Assembly: GCA_000934665.2 (NCBI GenBank) | Contig: JYFJ02004253.1 | Span: 1-33,572 of the forward strand | Direction: 5' to 3' | Source of the DNA: Catajapyx aquilonaris | Lineage: Eukaryota | DNA length: 33,572 nt | Shown: positions 13,300 to 33,272 of the stretch, one piece after another | Position numbering within the stretch: position 1 is the stretch's first letter | How the letters are laid out: each line of letters starts with the position of its first letter | Notes under the pieces: generated by a model | Told to the model about the DNA's origin: nothing | The model's database searches: none | Seen by the model: the letters and a program-made list of their open reading frames with translations, nothing else | Program-made: the position numbers and the translations under genes

Positions 13300-13441
13300 C
13301 CGTTTGCAGTTTGTGGCGCTGCAGTCAACAAGAATACGGCAAGTACGCCAGCACGCCAGGGGATTGTAATTACTAATGTGCATTATTAGAGCGTTTAATT
13401 GTCCATCTCGAGGGTGGAAATTAAACTTCTGGCCGGTAAGT
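13300..13441 (+). promoter_or_regulatory. Candidate non-coding first exon and splice donor of the PSMG3/GPN2 unit
   Basis: CpG-richer tract ending in a consensus donor G|GTAAGT at 13435/13436; a strong acceptor ends at 15067, 16 nt before the PSMG3 ATG. Confidence 0.35.
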
Positions 13442-13729
13442 ATCGGGTAATTGGGCAATTACACAAGGAGCACTTTATGCGTTGGCAGGTTGGAAATTTA
13501 GGGTACTCAACACCAAAGTGCATGCCGGGATTTTAGACATAAACCGTAATGGGAATGACACATGCGAGGGGGCAGACATTCGCCCTTGCGACACCAACAA
13601 CTGGACACTGCAATACCTGACGTTGAAGCTGGGGTTGAAAGCAATGAAAGTGCATGAGTCCCTAGAGGCGAGACTGAATTTTGTGAGGAAAAATTTTAAG
13701 TACTGGTACATGACATGACATGGGACTTA

Positions 13730-14257
13730 CAAGGGAAGTGTCTGTAGGGCCATCGGCCAATCGGCCCGAAAATGACACTAGGGGTAAATCGCAGGCCAGA
13801 AATTCATTGGTGAAAGTAAAAAGTCGCATTAGCCAAGCGTTTTCGAGATATGGGCGACTACAGGTGCCCGGTGACAATGGGGCGCATTCGGCAGAAGAAA
13901 TTATAAACAGTCTTCGTGGCTCAGTCGGTAGCGCGTCCGCGTCATGATCCGAAGTCTCTGCGTTCAAGTCCGCGGGAAGCGACTTTTTTTCCCCCCTCCC
14001 TCTCTCGTCTCGGAGCATCGGTTTCTTTTTCTTTCTTCTCCAACACCGTTTATCACCGCATATCTTCCCTTTTGCACTCAACAGGAATAAATAAACAGCT
14101 TGCTGGGAAGTGCATTACTTTTTTTTTCTTCTGCCGATGCTCGAAAACGGTTGGCTAATGCAACTTTTTACTTTCACCAATGAATTTCTGGCCTGCGATT
14201 TACCCCTAGTGTCATTTTCGGGCCGATTGGCCGATGGCCCTACAGACACTTCCCTTG
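13730..14257. mobile_element. Tc4/Tc5-type MITE, young, with an internal tRNA-like cassette
   Basis: About 118-bp near-perfect TIRs starting CAAGGGAAGTG; TTA duplicated in C-TTA-G. Confidence 0.88.
13910..13990 (+). ncRNA. Degenerate tRNA-like Pol III unit (not a canonical tRNA)
   Basis: A box TGGCTCAGTCGG, B-box-like GTTCAAGTC, GTCTTC/GAAG-GAC end pairing, T7 tract at 13984-13990. Confidence 0.5.
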
Positions 14258-15083
14258 TTAGTGAGGGAAGCCCACGGGAAGCCATTGCACTGAGTCAGCA
14301 ATACTATAGATGCAGTGCCTGGGAACAGATCCCAGAGGCCGGGATGTGCTGCAGTTTGAGTCCCTGTTTCCAGAGAGGAGATCCTAGGGCTCCCAGATTT
14401 TTTGCAGCCAAAGCTGAATTTTCAAATGTATTCTGAGCTGGTTTGGCAAGCATGCAGCTACGGACTCATTATGATGTTATGGATATTTTGATTCCGGTTA
14501 TGGGCTGCAAATAAGTTGTATTTTTTTTCTCTCTTGATGATGCTTTGAACCTGTACCTGAATGGAGATAAATCAGTAGTCACAGACATCGTCAATCCTGA
14601 TGTAGATAGTTTCCAAAGGTTTTTGCAAGCCAATCAATTTAAAAGTAGGCTTGAACCTGTGACATTTTGTTCATCCCTGCCCTGTAGTTTCATAATATGA
14701 CCAGCCTGGAATTTGGGGTGGCAGTGAATGTGTTCTAGTGGCACTTGGATGCTGATACGGTATGATAAGACGGACAGCTATGGGAATAAGAATTCAGTGC
14801 CAGCATCTTTGGTAATAGGCTTTGGAAAAGACAAATATCAGCTATGTTTGATGAAATTACCTGTGATTTATGACTTTTAAAATGTTATTTCCAGTCTACT
14901 TGGGACGGAGCTCTGAAGCAGCTTGTGCTCTTGTGAGATGATTACAAAAAATTTTATGCTAGAAGGATGATATCCAGGGTAGAGCATACAGTGGGAATTT
15001 CTACCCGCAATGCATGAAGCATATACTCTGGAATAACATTGTTTAATTTTTTCTGTTTGCTTTACAGGCTTCACTTTCATAAG

Positions 15084-16108
15084 ATGTGTGCATTTCCAGT
15101 TGAGACAAAGACCGTGTCACTTGCAATCAACGGGATCCATACGGACCTTGTTGTGAGCAAGTTCTGGTGGGTTACCCTGCTGTAGATTGTAGTGCATATA
15201 ACTGCCAGACAATTGAATATTTTAAAATTTAGTAATTGCACTAAAATAACTAGTCATTTGTTTTCAACAGCGACAAGACTCTAATCATTGCGACTCAATT
15301 CTCCAAGTTGGGAACGCTGATTGAGGTATCTCAGGGTAGTTCAAGAGAAGCACCAGGTGTGACAGTCTACAACTCAAAGTAAGGCATTTTCTGGTTTCCC
15401 AAGATGACAACTCTAAATATGAAAGGCTTTCAACCACTTCAGTGGGCTGAAAGAACAAAACTTATTATAAAGTTGGGCCCTGCTCTCATAGTTCAAGTTG
15501 GGCCATGAAGCCAATAAACGGCTTGAATCAAGATGTTGAATGGGTTAAAAGCCTTGGGATTTGATGGTGAATGAAGGCCTTTTGAGTTCTAGAGGCTATA
15601 TCCTGTACTGTTCTGCAATTTTTCAACATAATTATTATTTCAGGGTCCTTTTTGGGGTGGAGAAGGAAAATCTTGTAATAGCTGCACGCTACCTGGCTGA
15701 GAGGATTGGGATCCGAGAGCGGCCCTTGTTGTTTAGCCTCTCTCTCAAGGAATCAGGGCCACAAGTGGTGAAGTCCATCGAGGCGCAGCTGGTTCCCCTG
15801 ATTGGCAGAGGGGATGGCGGCAAGGACCCAATTTGGGCAGCTAGTGTTGGGGCCGCCAGGGTCAGGGAAGACAACCTACTGCAGGGCGCTGAAGGAGTTT
15901 CTCGAGGGGAGGGGGAGGAAAGTGGCTGTGTGCAACCTGGGTGAGTGTGACATGGGCATTACACACTCAGTTTTTTGTTTGCATGGCAATGAATGGTGTA
16001 AGGTGGAACTTCAAAATTTTTGAGTCTAGATAAAACCTGTTTGATTGTACAAACATTGCTGGTTTTAATGTGTTATGACTGACAATAAATTCTAGATCCA
16101 GCAAATGA
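15084..16108 (+). CDS. PSMG3: Proteasome assembly chaperone 3; exons 15084-15166, 15271-15378, 15644-15940, 16096-16108 (166 aa); stop at 15942-15944 if the last intron is not spliced (163 aa)
   Basis: GT-AG introns with matching phases give MCAFPVETKTVSLAINGIHTDLVVSKFCDKTLIIATQFSKLGTLIEV...YNSKVLFGVEKENLVIAARYL...PLLFSLSLKE, matching PAC3 motifs (TQFGKMGTL, KVLLG). Confidence 0.85.
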
Positions 16109-16921
16109 CGTGCTTCCATATGAAGCATCAGTAGATGTGTCCAACTTGATCGGCTTGGAGGAAGCCATGGACACCCTGAAGTTGGGACCCAATGGTGGCC
16201 TGGTCTACTGCATGGAGTACCTGGAGAAGAATGTAGATTGGCTAATCTCACAGCTTGGGAGTGGCTTGAAGGACTGCTACCTGGTTTTTGACTGCCCCGG
16301 ACAGGTGGAGCTGTACACTCACAACAATTCTATAAGAAATATCATAGTGGCCCTTGAAAAAGCAGGGGTCAGGCTGTGTGCTGTGAATCTGGTTGACTCC
16401 CACTACTGCAGTGAGCCTGGTCAGTCAGTGTTTTATTACTGATTGGGCAGTACAACCTAACTGGTTTTATCTTCTCAGCAAAATTTGTGTCTGTGTGCCT
16501 GACTTCATTGAGCACAATGCTGCAGCTGTCCCTTCCTCACATCAATGTCCTGTCTAAGATAGATCTGGCTGAGAAATATGGTAGACTCCATCTGGGCCTT
16601 GATTTCTACACTGACACCCTAGACCTCACCTTTCTGCTGGAACAGCTAACTGAAGATGACGCTGACCCCTTTGTGAAGAAGCATACCAAATTGACAGCTG
16701 CCCTGGCTGACCTGGTTGAACGTTATGGACTGGTTAATTTCTTGCCACTGTCAGTGAACTGCAAGGAGGCAATGGGAAAGTTGATGCTTCAAGTAGATAA
16801 AGCCAATGGGTATGTCTTTGGGGATGGGGAAAAGAGGAACATACAGGCCTTGCTTTCCTGTGCTGTTGGGGAAGACTTTCATGGGAAGGACACCCTTGCA
16901 GAGCAGTTTCATGATGACTAG
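15814..16921 (+). CDS. GPN2: GPN-loop GTPase 2; exons 15814-15940, 16096-16419, 16479-16921 (297 aa)
   Basis: FGQLVLGPPGSGKTTYC, NLDPAN across intron 1, LGPNGG, DCPGQVELYTH, INVLSKID; phase-consistent GT-AG introns, 894 nt in total. Confidence 0.95.
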
Positions 16922-17250
16922 TGCCAAGTATTCTTGTACAGGTTTTTGTACCAAGCTGATCAAGAGAACTTCATGTGCACATTACAAGTACATTTTTTTC
17001 TTTCAGTGAGTAACAATCTTGTACATGCATGTGTGATTGACTCCTGCAAGTTGTGACATTCTTCATTTTGCATTCAGAGGCAACTCGATGGTATGTCACT
17101 TACTATATCTATCAAAAATATGTGAGAATAATTATTTTACTGTATACCATTTTAACAGTTATATCACAGTTAATTAAAAGCATACATATGACATTCTTTC
17201 CTACAGAGCTAAACATACCGTCCATTTATGTCCAATGAGTGATGTACTGG

Positions 17251-17266
17251 AATAAATCACAATAAA
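17251..17266 (+). terminator. Candidate polyadenylation signals for GPN2
   Basis: Two AATAAA hexamers about 330 nt after the stop codon. Confidence 0.45.
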
Positions 17267-17711
17267 TTCACTGTCACAATTTTCTACCAGTTGTTTACTT
17301 GTAGTGCCTTAATTGAATGCTGTGTGTTGAACATGTCACTTTTCCACTGTCATCACTACATGTTTGTGTTTTGGAATGTGAGAATTTTCATTCATTACAG
17401 TAGCCAACTAATAGGAGCACACTTAAGCACAAGGAGTGTGAACATGACCTGGTAATGTCAGGAACATTTCCACTGATGCAGATGTGAGCTCAATTCTGAT
17501 TCGCACAGTATGACCTGTTACCGTATTACCTCACATAAAGAGCCAGTATAAAACGAGGTCAACCAGAATGGTGGTATAACCCGGGGGTGGCCGTAATGCC
17601 TCAATAACCGAGGTAGATTTCCGTCATTTTGATCCTTGTCATTTTTAAATGGAATGCTTCTAGTACCGGTACGGTACTGAAATTATGTTACGATGAAAAT
17701 GGGTGAGTGTA

Positions 17712-17799
17712 CTATGGGCGCCAAAAGAATTGACCGGAGTTGATGGGTATATAGCGCCATATACCCATCAAATCCGGTCAATTCTTTTGGCGCCCATAG
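17712..17799. mobile_element. 88-bp palindromic micro-MITE
   Basis: Near-perfect hairpin CTATGGGCGCC...GGCGCCCATAG with TA on both sides; absent from the sister copy at about 19665. Confidence 0.75.
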
Positions 17800-17889
17800 T
17801 ACAGCCTGTGAGAATATGCAAGTTCTGTTGCACAGTGCATAGAAAAAATGTCGATTGTGTGACCAATCCCATCGTCAGCCTGCTTTTAA

Positions 17890-20165: not shown

Positions 20166-20235
<70 letters not shown>

Positions 20236-20236
20236 G
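19804..20236 (+). mobile_element. tRNA-derived SINE with (TTA)n tail
   Basis: B box GGTTCGATCCC; 13-bp TSD CAAAGGATCAAGG (19791-19803 / 20237-20249). Confidence 0.85.
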
Positions 20237-20335
20237 CAAAGGATCAAGGGAAATTCCTTCAGTCCTTCCTTTGCTCAATAGTTCGCTGGTTGCAGATCTC
20301 GTCGACAATCAGAGGATCAATTTGTGTATCCCCGT

Positions 20336-22437: not shown

Positions 22438-22735
22438 GTAAATACTGGACAGTCGCAAGCATAGAGATGTGTATGGTAGACAAGAGCTCCTCCCCTGGTG
22501 TACCGTCCACATCTTTATGCTCGCGACTGTACATTATAATTATGTAAGGCCTGTGACTATATTCATATGGAACATGATTACGAAAGGGCTTGTTGGGACC
22601 GGGCATGCTTAAATGCAAGCAATAGAGGCAAACAAGAAAAAAGAGCGTCTTTTGCTCTGTCATTCTTCCATATTGTTGTACTCAACACCTTTGTATATGC
22701 TGCAGGTGGAAGTGTAACTTTTACTCTATACTGCC

Positions 22736-22737
<2 letters not shown>

Positions 22738-22784
<47 letters not shown>

Positions 22785-23060
22785 GAATTCATACCCCATT
22801 ATCAGCCATCGGCTCTTTAGGCGGGAAGTTTGTTTTGCCTGGAACTCTTTGCTTTCATTTTACTGTGCTCTTTGGGATAGGATAGGGACGGAAGGAAGCT
22901 GCTGTGGCCTATTAATTACGGAAGCAACTCCGGGATTTCCCTGGAAGGACCGTGGGAAACCACAGAAAACCACGGTCAGAATTGCCGGCCCCGGGATTCG
23001 AACCCAGGACCTCCCGATTAGCAGTCGGATGCCTTATCCACTATGCCAACCTGCTTCGGT
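22738..23060 (-). mobile_element. tRNA-derived SINE
   Basis: A/B boxes on the minus strand, (ATT)n tail, 14-bp TSD CTCTATACTGCCTA. Confidence 0.9.
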
Positions 23061-25859: not shown

Positions 25860-26126
25860 TTATTTTATTATTTTTATTTTTATTACCCCGTGATGTCCCT
25901 TACGGGAGCTATAAGGGGGGGGGGGGGGGGGGGCGGCATACCACCATCAGTTTTCTGTATTTCTTCAATCTCCGTGCAAGGACTTGTTCAGGATATANAC
26001 ACCTCCTTGGTGCAGGTCAGAGACCCTCCCGACGCAGGTGAAAGGAAGTTCCCCAGGCGGGGATCGAACCTGGGGCCTTTCACTCGCAAGCCGAGACGTT
26101 ACCATCTCGGCCACCACACCTCCTCC
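25860..26126 (-). mobile_element. tRNA-derived SINE (A)
   Basis: A/B boxes on the minus strand; TSD TAAATGTACTAT at 25848-25859 / 26127-26138. Confidence 0.85.
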
Positions 26127-26457: not shown

Positions 26458-29445
26458 TGTAGTGCCTCACGATGAGGCGTAAGAGACACCACAAAATAAC
26501 ACACGGAAACACGCCGGGGGAAAGGGTAAAACCACCACTGTGGACTTCTATTCAGGACAACTCGTACACACATCCGTCCAGGAGGACGGTAGAACAAGAA
26601 CTAACATTTATCGAACATCAACAACATCAGTGTCCTGGCAACCAGGGCAACAGACAACAACCTGGTAGCCAGGACACTACAATCTTCCCCCCTTAAAGAG
26701 AACGAGAAATATCTCGTTCCTTAACAATATGCTCCCATTCCAACTTGGACTTCTTTTTCTTCTTTCTCCAGTTCCTCCAGACTGGCCCTCTCCAGCTGGA
26801 GTTTCTTTCTCTGTCCAGTGACCGTTGATCTTCCGCATCTGCTTGATCATCAGGCCCGTCAAGATCAGCTTCTGCTTGGGCATCAGCCTCCGCCTCTAGC
26901 TGCTTCTGCCTCAGCTTCCGGAAGTCGTCCAATGATGTACAGACCCCTTCTGCAGCACCAAACCCTGTTGTAGTTCGCATTCCCTGCACCTGGGCCTCTT
27001 CTCGCCACTTGACTCGACGGTCCATCGTTACTTCACCATCTTCCCAGCACCGAATGTCATTCATCCCCCTGACTGCTTTGTCCCGCAGGTTGCCTCTATA
27101 TTGGAGACAACTCTTGGCACGCATCTGACTCGGCCTGCTGGCTTCTTCGTCGACCAGTTCTTCCATCGCTGGCTTCAGGTACAGCAGACCTCCTGGTTCA
27201 CTGCAGCACCCTATGGCACGTCTCCCCATGCTCTTCCCCAGCCCTCCATCGTCATGACGCAACCGCAGAGCGCCTACAGCCTGGTACTCTTCAGCTTCGT
27301 CTCTCACCTGCTCCTGGCTCCTCAACTCATCTTTCATCCCCGGGATGTTCCCTGTTGAGCACTCACACTTAGCTGAGGTTACTTCGTTGCTCTCAGGACC
27401 CACCAACAGCAAGCTCTTGGGATCTTCGGCCTCTGAACCTTCCTTCCTCAGCCCCCAGGTGTCCAAACCGTCATCCAGACCACCAGCCACTGGCTCCAAG
27501 ATCTGCAGCGCCCCTGGTCCATTGCAGCATCCCTTGGCACTACTTTCCATGCCCCCTTCCAGCTCCCTGGCGATATGGTGCAATCCCATTACGCCCTCTG
27601 TTTGGCCCTTTTCGGTCTTCACCCTCTTCATCTCAGCCTGGTGGGAGATTGTCCCAGCATCTTCTTGCCCCCCGACTGGATGGTACAGCGACTCGGCACT
27701 CTCTCTCCGGCACCGGTCTTCCTTCTTTCGCTCGACATCTTTGTTCCTCAGGCCACTTCTGCCACTCTCGGAACACTTCTGCACTGGCCTCCGAGTGTCC
27801 TCGCCATCAGCCTGGTCATCCGTCCCTGGCTTCAGGATCTGCACGCTTCCTGGCACGCTGCAGTATCTCCTGGCACTTCGATCTGTGCCTTCCACCAGCT
27901 CCCTGACGGTGAGGCGCCACCCCATGGTGCCCTCTACCTGGTCTTCTTCGGTCCTCACACCATTTCGGCCCAGCCAGTTGTCCAAACCCGGGTTGACCTC
28001 TGCTACCCCGCTGGTACTCATGTCATCGCCTGTTGTTGGAACTCTTATCTCCAACCACACGGGATCTCTCACCTCAGGACTTTTCTTCAATGGTCCCCGG
28101 GCACCCTCGCTGTCAACCGTACTGACCGTCGCTGGCCTCTGGATCTGCAGGCCACCCCCTGGTTCACTGCAGCCTCCCTTGGCACATCTCCCTGTGCCTT
28201 CATCCAGCCTCACGACATCATGGTGCACCATCACAGCACCACCTGTCCGGTCCTCTTCAGCTCTCACGTGCCTCTGGCCTAAAGTGCCCTTCCCAGAGAT
28301 GATCCCAGTCGTGCCACTGATCCCGGCTGCGGCACCACTTGACCCTTTCATCGGCAGGCCCCCTGTTGGCTCTCCGCAAACCCTCTCAGGCGCACCTGAC
28401 CTCGACAGCACAGTCGCAAGATGCGGCACACACTCATCACACTCGGGCCTCTTGCCCTCCGACGCACCGGTACTGGTACTGCCGTCATCGCCTGGCAACC
28501 TCACCTGATCACTCATTCTTGGCGCCTCCAGGAGTGTTTGGAGTGACACCGATGAACCCCCTTGGCCGTCGCATGGCAACGTCGATTGGCCCATTGTTGG
28601 CTCCTTCCGAATTGTACGGTGCTGCGATGCGGTCGTCGACCGTGTTCCTAAGCCATGTGCGGTGGAGTAGACCCCGTGAGGTGCAACTCTGCCCCCATTT
28701 CCATTGGGAGCAAGCCTTGCCAACATAGCCTTCCTCTCCTCCAAACACCGCACTCTCGCCTCCAGCTCCTCGCGGCTCCGACTTTGGGCCTCTGCGACCA
28801 TCCGCATCTGCTCCAACTCGTCTCTCATTTCCTGCCGCCTCTTGTCCCGGATCCGACGAGCAGCCTCCACAGCCATCTGCATCTGCACGAACTCCTCCTT
28901 CAGTTCCTTCCTGATGAGCTTCGTCTCCGTCCTGGAAGCTCTTCCATCGGGCAGGGGCCCTCCTCGCAATACTGGGGAATCGCCATCTCTGCCCCACTTG
29001 CTTCCCTGCCACCTACCCGGAGTTCTGTCCTCTCCCGTCTCCATCCTGTGCTGCAGTCCTTCAACATATATCCTCCAGTCCACGGATCCACTGCCCTCCT
29101 CGGCTTTGAAGCACCTTTCTTCCCCCAGGATGGCTCGCAGCTGCTGAAGGAATGCCATCTTCCTCAGCGACGTCCAATCCGGCCTTGTGGTTCCGATATC
29201 CAAACACTTCTGACACCAATTTGTAGTGCCTCACGATGAGGCGTAAGAGACACCACAAAATAACACACGGAAACACGCCGGGGGAAAGGGTAAAACCACC
29301 ACTGTGGACTTCTATTCAGGACAACTCGTACACACATCCGTCCAGGAGGACGGTAGAACAAGAACTAACATTTATCGAACATCAACAACATCAGTGTCCT
29401 GGCAACCAGGGCAACAGACAACAACCTGGTAGCCAGGACACTACA
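26458..29445 (-). mobile_element. Non-autonomous Gypsy-like LTR retrotransposon
   Basis: Two 224-bp LTRs (26458-26681, 29222-29445), identical by eye, with TGTAGTG...CACTACA ends; ATAA TSD; PBS TGGTGTCAGAAGTG (tRNA-Leu type); PPT AAGGGGGAAGA. Confidence 0.95.
26693..29203 (-). CDS. Uncharacterised 836-aa LTR-element protein (821 aa from the ATG at 29158): coiled coil plus four internal repeats
   Basis: Uninterrupted ORF filling the interval between PBS and PPT; no protease, RT, RNase H or integrase catalytic motifs seen. Confidence 0.7.
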   Translation of the reverse strand: MDIGTTRPDWTSLRKMAFLQQLRAILGEERCFKAEEGSGSVDWRIYVEGLQHRMETGEDRTPGRWQGSKWGRDGDSPVLRGGPLPDGRASRTETKLIRKELKEEFVQMQMAVEAARRIRDKRRQEMRDELEQMRMVAEAQSRSREELEARVRCLEERKAMLARLAPNGNGGRVAPHGVYSTAHGLGTRSTTASQHRTIRKEPTMGQSTLPCDGQGGSSVSLQTLLEAPRMSDQVRLPGDDGSTSTGASEGKRPECDECVPHLATVLSRSGAPERVCGEPTGGLPMKGSSGAAAGISGTTGIISGKGTLGQRHVRAEEDRTGGAVMVHHDVVRLDEGTGRCAKGGCSEPGGGLQIQRPATVSTVDSEGARGPLKKSPEVRDPVWLEIRVPTTGDDMSTSGVAEVNPGLDNWLGRNGVRTEEDQVEGTMGWRLTVRELVEGTDRSARRYCSVPGSVQILKPGTDDQADGEDTRRPVQKCSESGRSGLRNKDVERKKEDRCRRESAESLYHPVGGQEDAGTISHQAEMKRVKTEKGQTEGVMGLHHIARELEGGMESSAKGCCNGPGALQILEPVAGGLDDGLDTWGLRKEGSEAEDPKSLLLVGPESNEVTSAKCECSTGNIPGMKDELRSQEQVRDEAEEYQAVGALRLRHDDGGLGKSMGRRAIGCCSEPGGLLYLKPAMEELVDEEASRPSQMRAKSCLQYRGNLRDKAVRGMNDIRCWEDGEVTMDRRVKWREEAQVQGMRTTTGFGAAEGVCTSLDDFRKLRQKQLEAEADAQAEADLDGPDDQADAEDQRSLDRERNSSWRGPVWRNWRKKKKKSKLEWEHIVKERDISRSL

Positions 29446-31072: not shown

Positions 31073-31859
31073 CAGTGGCATTGGTGGCATCGTAAAGAGA
31101 CTAGCAGCACAACTAGCTTACAAAAACAAGCCTTTCAACTGGTATTATTACCCAATTGCCATACACTTTGCAGCATGCCCAGGTTATAAAGGGTCAGTCA
31201 TGGGGCCAATATATTCAGAGGAAGCTGAGAGGTCAGTGTAAAGCAGGGTAATATTTGTGATTTCCTCCTTCCCTTCGAGATTGTCAAAAATAAACTAATA
31301 TTAGTGACTTGCCAACTGCAATGGTTTATTGCCTCACAAGCAAGAATATTCTGAAATTTTCTTTCAGGACTTGCAAGTGATTGATTTGGTGTTGATAGCC
31401 TTCGGGTACCACACAAAAGACCAAATTGTGACATGGGCTGATTTCAGTCAGAGTGGGCTCTGTTAGTATCAGCATGTAAACATACGATTTTCAGGATTTT
31501 TTTCTCAATTATTGCTTTAGGGTAGGATGTTTGAAACTCTTATTGATAAGTTACCCAATGTCACAGCCTTCTACCTCTGGGGTCCTGAGCTCAATGCCGC
31601 AGTTGGACAGAGGATTTTCTGTCATGGAAAGTGTTTTGAGAGGTCTTTTCTATGTTTGCATGTGTTTTCTTGCGATTTTCCTGTACTTTCTGACGCTGTC
31701 CATAAACCTCTCTTCTCCTCTCACTCTCACGCCAGGTAGCCTGTAGTTACTTAGCTCCCCCAATAAACCAAACCATCCCAAACTCTCTCTTTACCATTGT
31801 AAAACTCACAGAAATGTACTTTTTTTTTCTAGGTCCTGATATCCTGCCACATTGTAAAG

Positions 31860-32387
31860 ATGTCTGTTGTGACTGTTCAGGTGGGACAATGTGGGATTCA
31901 ATCAGGCCGTGCTTTTTTTGATGCCCTGTCTGACGATGTGGACACACATGCAGTGAAACGTCATGATGCCATATATTGCCGAGAAGCAACTGAGAGATTT
32001 TTTCGTACCAACCGACCTGGTGAGCGAAGAGCAAGAGCTGTTTTGGTTGACACTGAGGAGAAAGTGGTGCATGACGTAATGAAGAGTGTAGACCGGCCCC
32101 CAGATGCACGGTGGTGGAACTATTATCCCCCAAATGCTATCTATCAGAAGGGCGGATCATACAACAACTGGGCATTTGGCTACAGTGTGAAAGGACCAGC
32201 ATTAAGTGAGGCCGTGGTGGATGTTACTAGCAGGGAGGTTGAGCGCTGTGACCAGTTGGAAGGCATTCTAACAGTGGGGAGTGCTGCTGGAGGTACCGGC
32301 TCAGGGGCTGGGGTGCGCCTGCTAAATGATTTCCGGGAAGAGTGGCCAAAGTCAACAATAGTGGCCATCTCAGTGCTTCCATACCAG
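31860..32387 (+). CDS. TUBD1: Delta-tubulin, first coding exon (176 codons); the rest was not found in the window
   Basis: MSVVTVQVGQCG, ERFF, ARAVLVDTEEKV, NNWAFGYSVKGP, EVERCD, AGGTGSG; acceptor ending at 31832, donor at 32388. Confidence 0.9.
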
Positions 32388-32853
32388 GTGAAATATTAAG
32401 TTGCTAAAATTGTGACCTTTGCAGGTTAGTTTGTGTGATGAAAATCGTTTTTATCATCAAATCATATTTATCCTTTGGTGCAAGTTTTTGAAGAATCCTT
32501 GTTTGTAAAAATTGTTAATTTTTTTGGTAGGGGTCTGTTCAGACAGAATAAGCAATTTTAGTACTCTCTGTACTGACTGCCACTTTGGTTGGTTTATTGT
32601 GGGAGCAAAAGCAACTAAGGCTATCTGGCATTGGGGATGGGAAGGGAAAAATGCAGGCTCCAGTGATGAAGGGATGAAGGGACATTAGCCACTACATCAC
32701 CTTGCTGCCACCTAACTGCTATGTAATTTTTGTAAAGTTCATAAGGTGGTTTTGACTTTCATATGGGTGGACCCGTGGACATTCTTCGTGTCTTGACCTG
32801 TGTGGGGGAGGATGCATAAGAGAGAATTTGAATTTGAACATCACACCAGAGAC

Positions 32854-32906: not shown

Positions 32907-33160
32907 TTGTTTACTTTGGTGAATGTAATTTTCACAAGTCAAAAAGATGATTCCTTTGACCTTGGAAATTAGGGCAAGTAAAGTAGCACGACACTAAAGT
33001 AAGGTAGCAGTTATTGGACCAGATGAATTTGCTTACCAGAATGACACAAAGTAGGAAAATAGCATACTATGCCATCTGAACGGGCCCTGCTTATTCTGAA
33101 ATTGACCCAATGGCAGCATTAGAGAAGATGAGACATTACTTATGGCTGCTGAAGAAAGGC

Positions 33161-33161
<1 letters not shown>

Positions 33162-33244
<83 letters not shown>

Positions 33245-33272
33245 GTTGTTGTTGTTATTGTTATTGTTATTA
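33162..33272. repeat. (TTA)n/(TTG)n microsatellite
   Basis: Directly visible in the sequence. Confidence 0.95.

Follow-up and report, generated by a model that had tools for sequence, protein, structure and literature searches.

How could two unrelated proteins be produced from one spliced transcript when the reading frame of the first runs over the start codon of the second? This question is raised by a stretch of Catajapyx aquilonaris DNA (GCA_000934665.2, contig JYFJ02004253.1), which we analyzed over its whole length of 33,572 nt (hereafter the window; all coordinates of the locus are on the + strand). At positions 15084 to 16921, the open reading frame (ORF) of PSMG3, which encodes the proteasome assembly chaperone PAC3, shares exons with GPN2, which encodes an RNA polymerase biogenesis GTPase. 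An initial annotation of the sequence had proposed a bicistronic or dual-coding locus. Our results make it probable that PSMG3-GPN2 is a bicistronic unit conserved in an arthropod-like, probably crustacean, lineage, that GPN2 is translated by leaky scanning, and that the extended PAC3 of the window is the product of a derived stop loss.

Exon layout and reading frames

PSMG3 has three coding exons (15084-15166, 15271-15378, and 15644 onward), as does GPN2 (15814-15940, 16096-16419, and 16479-16921). The features of the locus are listed below; X1 denotes the sequencing run described in a later section.

13321..13342, + strand: 5′ untranslated region (UTR) exon, minimum extent; loose end of the X1 contig, with a GT donor at 13343.
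15068..15166, + strand: exon with the PSMG3 start codon (ATG 15084-15086, context cataagATGt); X1 contig piece and joint.
15271..15378, + strand: PSMG3 coding exon 2, with the first part of the PAC3 domain; X1 contig piece, Pfam, and tblastn.
15644..15940, + strand: shared exon; PAC3 C-terminal half up to about 15791, followed by the GPN2 start codon and P-loop; contig and Pfam.
15795..15801, + strand: run of Cs (15795-15798), then TGA 15799-15801 in the GPN2 frame; putative stop-loss site.
15814-15816, + strand: GPN2 start codon, context gaggggATGg.
15814..15940, + strand: first part of the dual-frame overlap, with GPN2 residues 1-42 and the PSMG3 tail.
15941..16095, + strand: GPN2 intron 1, containing TGA 15942-15944 (PSMG3 frame) and AATAAA 16084-16089.
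16096..16419, + strand: GPN2 exon 2, whose opening 13 nt close the spliced PSMG3 ORF at TGA 16106-16108.
16479..17220, + strand: last GPN2 exon and 3′ UTR; stop TAG 16919-16921, coding part to 16921.

The first ATG of the reconstructed mRNA is the PSMG3 start, and the GPN2 ATG is at +1 relative to the PSMG3 frame. Upstream, TGA 15799-15801 and TGA 15769 close the GPN2 frame, and the PSMG3 frame contains no stop within 15645-15941. If unspliced, the PSMG3 frame first stops at TGA 15942-15944; with the intron 15941-16095 removed, it ends at TGA 16106-16108. The spliced PSMG3 ORF comprises 166 codons, with a domain part of about 115 aa and a tail of about 50 aa, and overlaps GPN2 by 127 + 13 = 140 nt. 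The positions of both ATGs, the +1 frame, the three TGAs, and the 140-nt overlap given in the initial annotation all agreed with the sequence. The tail peptides that it named were found in the translation of the spliced PSMG3 ORF, and our frame reading bore out its statement that about 50 aa are added to PAC3 by off-frame reading of the GPN2 P-loop exon.

Identity of the two proteins

Pfam searches with PSMG3 were run exon piece by exon piece and not on the whole spliced protein. The exon-3 piece matched the PAC3 family (PF10178) with an E value of 5.7e-06 and 26.9 bits (cut-off 21.2) over positions 33-84 of the 87-position profile (residues 1-49). The exon-2 piece matched profile positions 1-30 with an E value of 0.0033 and 18.1 bits, which taken alone is below the cut-off, and the 27-aa exon-1 piece gave no Pfam match. 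In tblastn searches with the PAC3 proteins of two relatives (L003 and L005, described below), all three PSMG3 exons were matched; the L003 query matched 15093-15164 at 54% identity and also 15269-15373. The PAC3 of L003 in turn matched human PAC3/PSMG3 (PDB 2z5e_A) with an E value of 4.7e-10 over residues 16-121. The upstream protein, initially annotated as PAC3, thus passed the profile check with its exon-3 piece. Members of the PAC3 family are small single-domain proteins of about 120 aa with PAC4 as the partner, and the window protein exceeds this length, at 166 aa, owing to its tail. A word-indexed protein search with the exon-3 piece at near lengths gave six candidates, none at E ≤ 0.01; a search of 1.84 billion representatives gave no PAC3 relative, and no close relative of either protein was present in the searched protein collection.

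In regards to GPN2, the three exons matched ATP_bind_1 (PF03029) with E values of 1e-08, 7.1e-35, and 2.3e-17 and covered positions 1-32, 34-138, and 140-239 of the 240-position profile, the first of these on 15814-15939. The P-loop GPPGSGKT and the GPNG motif are visible in the translation. A protein search with exon 2 gave 1,627 matches at E ≤ 1e-10 among 1,757 candidates, with a best identity of 71%. The best 120 of the 1,627 matches showed 60–71% identity, and many were named GPN2 from many animals; the named proteins among these 120 were almost all GPN-loop GTPase 2, with a few bearing generic names only. These names and best-match identities point to orthology with GPN2 and not with GPN1 or GPN3, neither of which was among the sequences of the tree.

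Spliced contig and transcript ends

A single public run matching the stretch was found (X1), which contains 63% of the sampled words. Against 14440-17700, X1 gave a single contig of 1,592 nt with a word depth of 16.9. Its pieces (15068-15165, 15270-15378, 15644-15939, 16095-16418, and 16478-17220) show no other letters and no gaps relative to the window, and 4 of 4 joints are GT..AG. The contig connects the 5′ UTR exon with each of the five exons that follow and thereby places both ORFs on one assembled spliced sequence. The run record gives no RNA label; we take the contig to be RNA-derived because it contains none of the introns. The 22 loose letters 5′ of 15068 match a single site in the window, 13321-13342, without mismatch, and none of 100 shuffles matched. 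Since this 22-mer is encoded in the window and is followed by GT, it represents a cis-spliced 5′ UTR exon, and a spliced leader was ruled out as its source. The assembled path therefore supports the single transcription unit proposed in the initial annotation, and we infer that one mRNA molecule carries both ORFs.

No AATAAA or ATTAAA occurs within 15514-16083, which leaves PSMG3 without its own poly(A) signal ahead of the GPN2 start. The first hexamer after this gap is AATAAA 16084, inside GPN2 intron 1, and those near the contig 3′ end are ATTAAA 17173, AATAAA 17251, and AATAAA 17261. TGA 15942-15944 together with AATAAA 16084-16089 could form an alternative, PSMG3-only 3′ end; no such form was seen in the X1 contig.

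Two inverted repeats flank or interrupt the transcribed region. The arms of a 123-nt repeat (13725-13847 and 14140-14262, 98% complementary, with 292 nt between them) lie in the 5′ UTR intron and are probably a small transposon-like insertion. A 45-nt repeat resembling a perfect hairpin (17711-17800, 96% complementary, 0 nt between the arms) lies some 500 nt beyond the 3′ end of GPN2.

PAC3-GPN2 linkage in relatives

A contig search with P0013, a copepod GPN2 relative, yielded 54 metagenome loci, which we examined for the conserved adjacency that the initial annotation had suggested as a check. In 7 of the 54 (L001-L005, L031, and L041), GPN2 is immediately preceded by a PAC3 ORF on the same strand; these seven correspond to about five further taxa. 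A local hidden Markov model (HMM) built from five PAC3 proteins matched only those seven loci, each of which was confirmed by Pfam (E 1.3e-05 to 1.6e-18), and no PAC3 match was obtained in the other 47. The linked taxa are as follows.

L001: PAC3 Pfam E 1.3e-05; PAC3 stop to GPN2 ATG 9 nt; genomic, intronless.
L002: PAC3 Pfam E 4.5e-09; PAC3 stop to GPN2 ATG 25 nt.
L003: PAC3 Pfam E 1.6e-18; PAC3 stop to GPN2 ATG 30 nt; L004 is the same taxon.
L005: PAC3 Pfam E 2.4e-14; PAC3 stop to GPN2 ATG 32 nt; L031 comes from the same taxon or a near one.
L041: PAC3 Pfam E 7.6e-12 and 2.2e-04 (two exons); PAC3 stop to GPN2 ATG 7 nt; genomic, with introns.

The initial statement that the two are normally separate genes is therefore too broad, as they are adjacent, 7–32 nt apart, in seven arthropod-like loci. 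The linkage is old, and only the overlap is special to the window. In the GPN2 trees, the linked records and the window fall into one group with insects, Artemia, chelicerates, and copepods, the support of which is not strong (91–92 in the Shimodaira-Hasegawa-like approximate likelihood ratio test, SH-aLRT). Within the tree, L001 and L002 group with Tigriopus (support 100), L003 adjoins Artemia (87), and the window adjoins L005 (93). L013-L027, L030, and L037, which have no PAC3 in up to about 4 kb of upstream sequence, form a clade with L007-L012 outside the group of all named animals. In L006-L011, less than 160 nt precede the P-loop, which is too little to inform on PAC3; of the 47 loci lacking PAC3, only those in the tree were placed.

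The introns of L041 occupy the same three positions and phases as those of the window: after the PAC3 SKF motif (phase 2), after the PAC3 VYN-x-K motif (phase 2), and after the GPN2 VNL motif (phase 1). In L041, too, a single exon thus contains the last part of PAC3 and the beginning of GPN2. L004 and L003 diverge only upstream of the first intron position, where L004 is AT-rich and ends in an acceptor-like AG; this stretch (L004:1-166) is a retained intron 1 that ends at the same position as PSMG3 intron 1 of the window, which makes L003 a spliced mRNA contig across both ORFs. Transcript-like contigs spanning both ORFs, all of them assemblies, were found in L002, L003, L005, and L031.

The frame of the second ORF relative to the first is the same in L001 and L003, +1 in L002 and the window, and +2 in L005. 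This variation makes a conserved fusion by read-through or frameshifting unlikely, and no continuous frame covers both domains in the window, where the frames differ by one. P0013 (491 aa), in which Pfam finds PAC3 at 79-130 (E 7e-05) and ATP_bind_1 at 165-411, was considered as a PAC3-GPN2 fusion protein and rejected as a gene-calling artefact: in the L001 DNA, 100% identical, the W of P0013 corresponds to TGA 1643-1645, a PAC3 stop after which the GPN2 ATG comes at 1655. A GPN2-only member, P0121 (336 aa), belongs to the same cluster as P0013, and residues 1-158 of P0013 used as a query retrieved only P0013 itself among 335 candidates.

L005 and L031 contain a further gene on the same contig. 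A Gemin7 ORF (L005:261-641 and L031:29-400; PF11095, E 6.2e-20), encoding a protein of snRNP assembly, is located upstream of the PAC3 start at a distance of 25 nt and is preceded by an additional 84-aa ORF, so that three or four ORFs stand in a row, with Gemin7, PAC3, and GPN2 all being assembly factors. Several ATGs occur in the Gemin7 stretch, in contrast to PAC3. Gemin7 was not found in the window by tblastn (best E 1.7).

Near-absence of ATG from the first cistron

In the window mRNA, the next ATG after the PSMG3 start in any frame is the GPN2 start, 361 nt later; the 358 nt between them contain none, and the 1,190 nt after the GPN2 ATG contain 27. We compared the 358-nt stretch with 20,000 randomized sequences of each of three kinds. 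Dinucleotide shuffles had a mean of 5.25 ATGs, and a fraction of 0.0008 had none. When the order of codons was shuffled with the protein composition kept, the mean was 1.13 and the zero-ATG fraction 0.26; synonymous resampling gave 0.59 and 0.41, respectively. These high fractions with the protein fixed indicate that the signal in the window is mostly an absence of Met codons, to which the absence of out-of-frame ATGs adds little.

The stretch between the two starts was then compared among five records, using 5,000 dinucleotide shuffles each (means 4.1–5.3 ATGs).

Window: 0 ATGs in 358 nt; fraction of shuffles with no more ATGs than observed 0.0008.
L001: 1 ATG (at +7, out of frame) in 462 nt; fraction 0.041.
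L002: 0 ATGs in 541 nt; fraction 0.008.
L003: 0 ATGs in 408 nt; fraction 0.0038.
L005: 0 ATGs in 443 nt; fraction 0.0004.

For comparison, 14–25 ATGs occur in the 888–1,005 nt of GPN2 coding sequence in these records. The pairwise identity of PAC3 in these records is only 22–39%, which indicates that the ATG-poor state survived extensive sequence change. The linked PAC3 proteins have no internal Met except for one in L041, and the aligned human PAC3 (2z5e_A) has Met, for example in FGKMG, where they have V or L.

Route to GPN2 translation

The initial claim that GPN2 requires a non-standard route to translation is supported. We propose the following course. The capped mRNA would begin at or before 13321 and be spliced five times, with the PAC3 ORF first and the GPN2 ORF second. 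A fraction of the scanning 40S subunits would initiate at the PAC3 AUG, and those bypassing it would meet no AUG in any frame before that of GPN2, where they would initiate. Of the routes that the initial annotation listed (leaky scanning, internal initiation, an exonic promoter, or an alternative splice), leaky scanning gains from the 358 nt lacking ATG and the similar state of the relatives, and the others are not favored. The ATG pattern thus suggests leaky scanning as the route to GPN2.

Several observations weigh against this interpretation. Efficient leaky scanning is expected to start from a weak first AUG, and such weakness is not clearly evident in the PAC3 AUG, which carries a purine at −3 in all five records and is poor only at +4 (T in 4 of 5). 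The GPN2 AUG has a purine at −3 in 4 of 5 (C in L005) and G at +4 in the window only; these contexts were judged without a species-specific consensus. With the protein fixed, the case from the window alone is modest, as 26% and 41% of the trials gave no ATG. The partial L041 record has one in-frame ATG within PAC3 (339-341, with T at −3), L001 has its out-of-frame ATG at +7, and the five records compared are related, so that their P values are not fully independent. The RNA origin of X1 is deduced from its missing introns, and its contig, as an assembly of reads, represents one spliced path, not proof of one molecule with both ORFs, and cannot show where transcripts start or end. An internal GPN2 promoter might lie in the exon at 15644-15813.

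Probable loss of the PAC3 stop codon

All relatives stop PAC3 before the GPN2 ATG, which identifies the overlap and the tail in the window as a derived stop loss. Around the run of Cs, the codons of the PSMG3 frame are gtt ccc ctg att. With one C fewer in 15795-15798, PAC3 would stop at TGA 15799-15801, 12 nt before the GPN2 ATG, as in the relatives; an extra C may therefore have put this TGA out of frame. A substitution in the former stop is equally possible, for example at AGA 15807-15809, which is one change from TGA. After the loss, PAC3 would read 140 nt into the GPN2 coding sequence off-frame and acquire the tail of about 50 aa.

The tail gave no Pfam match. Its region (query 48-98) matched an unrelated protein of 2,384 aa among the 1.84 billion representatives with an E value of 8.8e-04, a marginal match that we rejected as composition-driven. 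The tail is most likely a tolerated by-product rather than a selected second coding layer. The dual-coding locus of the initial annotation thus stands as far as the off-frame overlap is concerned; nothing shows that dual coding is selected, and the relatives have no tail.

Alternative explanations

The two ORFs may instead belong to separate overlapping mRNAs, with a GPN2 start site in PSMG3 intron 2 or exon 3 and a contig that merges both; PSMG3 would then share the downstream exons passively, or end at an intronic poly(A) site after AATAAA 16084 with the stop TGA 15942. Contigs are blind to transcript starts and ends, AATAAA 16084 lies within GPN2 intron 1 with the PSMG3-frame TGA 15942-15944 just past the donor, and the ATG-free stretch before 15814 would also fit a GPN2 5′ UTR. 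Moreover, many Drosophila dicistronic loci have monocistronic alternatives, and only 45 of 159 pairs are exclusively dicistronic according to the available text of PMC4528330. However, the ATG-free stretch extends over the PAC3 cistron in full, exons 15084-15166 and 15271-15378 included, rather than over its last 170 nt alone; four other records are alike, and a start site in exon 3 leaves this whole-cistron lack unexplained. The spacers of 7–32 nt in the relatives are too short for a 3′ end plus a promoter, and X1 gave the spliced form only, with no loose end at an internal start, with the proviso that contigs drop rare forms. We therefore consider separate mRNAs unlikely. Still less probable is another route to GPN2 on a shared transcript, whether termination-reinitiation, an IRES (internal ribosome entry site), or spliced-leader trans-splicing at AG 15806-15807. 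Copepods are known to trans-splice, and ttcccctgattggcag upstream of 15808 resembles a 3′ splice site, but such an acceptor-like AG before the GPN2 ATG is inconsistent among the relatives, the transcript 5′ end is the cis-spliced exon at 13321, and X1 has no leader-bearing contig at 15808. The stop-start spacing of 7–32 nt in the relatives is like that of coupled termination-reinitiation, which is implausible in the window because the first ORF ends 140 nt past the GPN2 AUG. IRES use is possibly common among fly dicistronic genes, as the FlyBase authors put it in the available text of PMC4528330, but neither an IRES nor reinitiation needs the conserved ATG-free first cistron, which leaky scanning would explain.

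Two further explanations concern the overlap. A sequence error or rare allele is conceivable, in which the true run has three Cs, TGA 15799-15801 closes PAC3, and the locus would be a plain bicistron whose ORFs do not overlap. Long-read assemblies commonly contain errors in homopolymer length, the one-base change would restore a stop 12 nt before the GPN2 ATG in the exact layout of the relatives, and X1 could derive from the same individual as the assembly. The X1 contig, however, also has four Cs, which argues against an assembly error; at a word depth of 16.9, it shows no gaps and no other letters over this stretch, and it is intron-free and thus not simply the same genomic assembly. We regard an error or allele as improbable. 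Selected dual coding, in which the extended PAC3 has its own function and the overlap couples the evolution of both proteins, seems very improbable to us. It would fit the extended ORF being intact and on an expressed spliced contig, with the PAC3 domain, splice sites, and start all intact, but the extension occurs in none of the five linked records (L001, L002, L003, L005, and L041), its sole match is the marginal one noted above, and it is not unusual for 42 codons of an alternative frame to be open by chance (about 0.13 by our own estimate). A conserved bicistron with leaky scanning and a lineage-specific stop loss remains the reading that we prefer.

Other features of the window

The GT..AG introns, a long interspersed nuclear element (LINE)-type ORF, and microsatellites mark the window as animal DNA. 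The LINE-type frame (93-1778, − strand, 561 aa) has endonuclease/reverse-transcriptase domains (Exo_endo_phos_2, E 9.2e-12) and runs off toward the window start. An open frame of 188 aa at 31833-32399 (+ strand) contains a tubulin GTPase domain (PF00091, E 9.4e-30) and probably represents exon 1 of a divergent tubulin gene. The 845-aa open frame at 26693-29230 (− strand), with a GC content of 0.52–0.60 and no Pfam match, is overlapped by several long opposite-strand ORFs and may accordingly be open owing to composition or be a repeat-rich element. Long trinucleotide microsatellites, translated as runs of Y or I, lie at 20200-20290, 22730-22790, and 33130-33260, and a single N occurs at 25998.

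Significance and comparison with known systems

Bicistronic nuclear genes are known in animals, but few have been shown to be conserved over deep lineages, and fewer carry a sequence signature that points to the mechanism. The PAC3-GPN2 pair lends itself to a clean comparative test of leaky scanning in animals, and the linkage suggests a co-regulated output of the two proteins. The window adds a natural variant: with the first ORF running past the second start, it speaks against termination-reinitiation. The locus is also a warning for annotation, as programs that call one coding sequence per mRNA miss PAC3 or GPN2, and the TGA read as W produced the false fusion P0013. A more far-reaching view, in which PSMG3-GPN2 is an ancient obligate bicistron of crustaceans, perhaps of arthropods, scanning fixes the PAC3:GPN2 ratio, the window is a natural stop-loss experiment that shows GPN2 synthesis to be independent of ORF 1 terminating near its start, and the extended PAC3 is made and used, appears doubtful to us.

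Our literature search found no paper with both PSMG3 and GPN2, by symbol or by full name. GPN2 was absent among the matches listed for bicistronic, dicistronic, or polycistronic transcripts, as was "dicistronic" among those listed for PAC3/PSMG3 in Drosophila. CG10222 is presumably the fly GPN2. In the readable files of the FlyBase supplement, including the polycistronic gene list File S1, neither CG10222 nor GPN, "proteasome assembly", or PSMG3 occurs.

Bicistronic loci of green algae, as described in the accessible portions of PMC11291117 and PMC11892635, use leaky scanning and show few start codons before ORF 2, short spacers, and long conservation, and in some of them the stop and start codons overlap. 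PSMG3-GPN2 is similar in the rarity of start codons before ORF 2, the short inter-ORF spacers of the relatives, and the conserved pairing. The algal loci differ, in the same portions of these sources, by a weak Kozak-like context of ORF 1, whereas PAC3 has a purine at −3 in all five records. PSMG3-GPN2 is further distinguished by its animal lineage and by introns in its genes. In human, PSMG3 and GPN2 are separate monocistronic genes on different chromosomes.

In human, MOCS2A and MOCS2B are encoded by overlapping ORFs in different frames. MOCS2 and its fly counterpart Mocs2-CG42503, which encode molybdopterin synthase subunits, form a conserved bicistronic pair (PMC4528330, available part). 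Unlike these two subunits of one enzyme, PAC3 serves the 20S proteasome and GPN2 the RNA polymerases.

To our knowledge, there is no physical link between PAC3 and GPN2. The dicistronic mRNAs of Drosophila stoned and Snapin have an AUG-poor first cistron, and their second ORF is reached by scanning past the first start (Wall et al. 2005, as related in the available parts of PMC11291117 and PMC4528330). Like these, PSMG3-GPN2 has two unrelated ORFs, the first of them AUG-deficient, on what is probably one arthropod nuclear mRNA; it differs in the gene pair, in being known from sequence alone, and in its 140-nt off-frame overlap, where the ORFs of stoned and Snapin lie apart. Our results support PSMG3-GPN2 as a further conserved animal bicistronic gene with an AUG-free first cistron, in which a lineage-specific stop loss creates the overlap.

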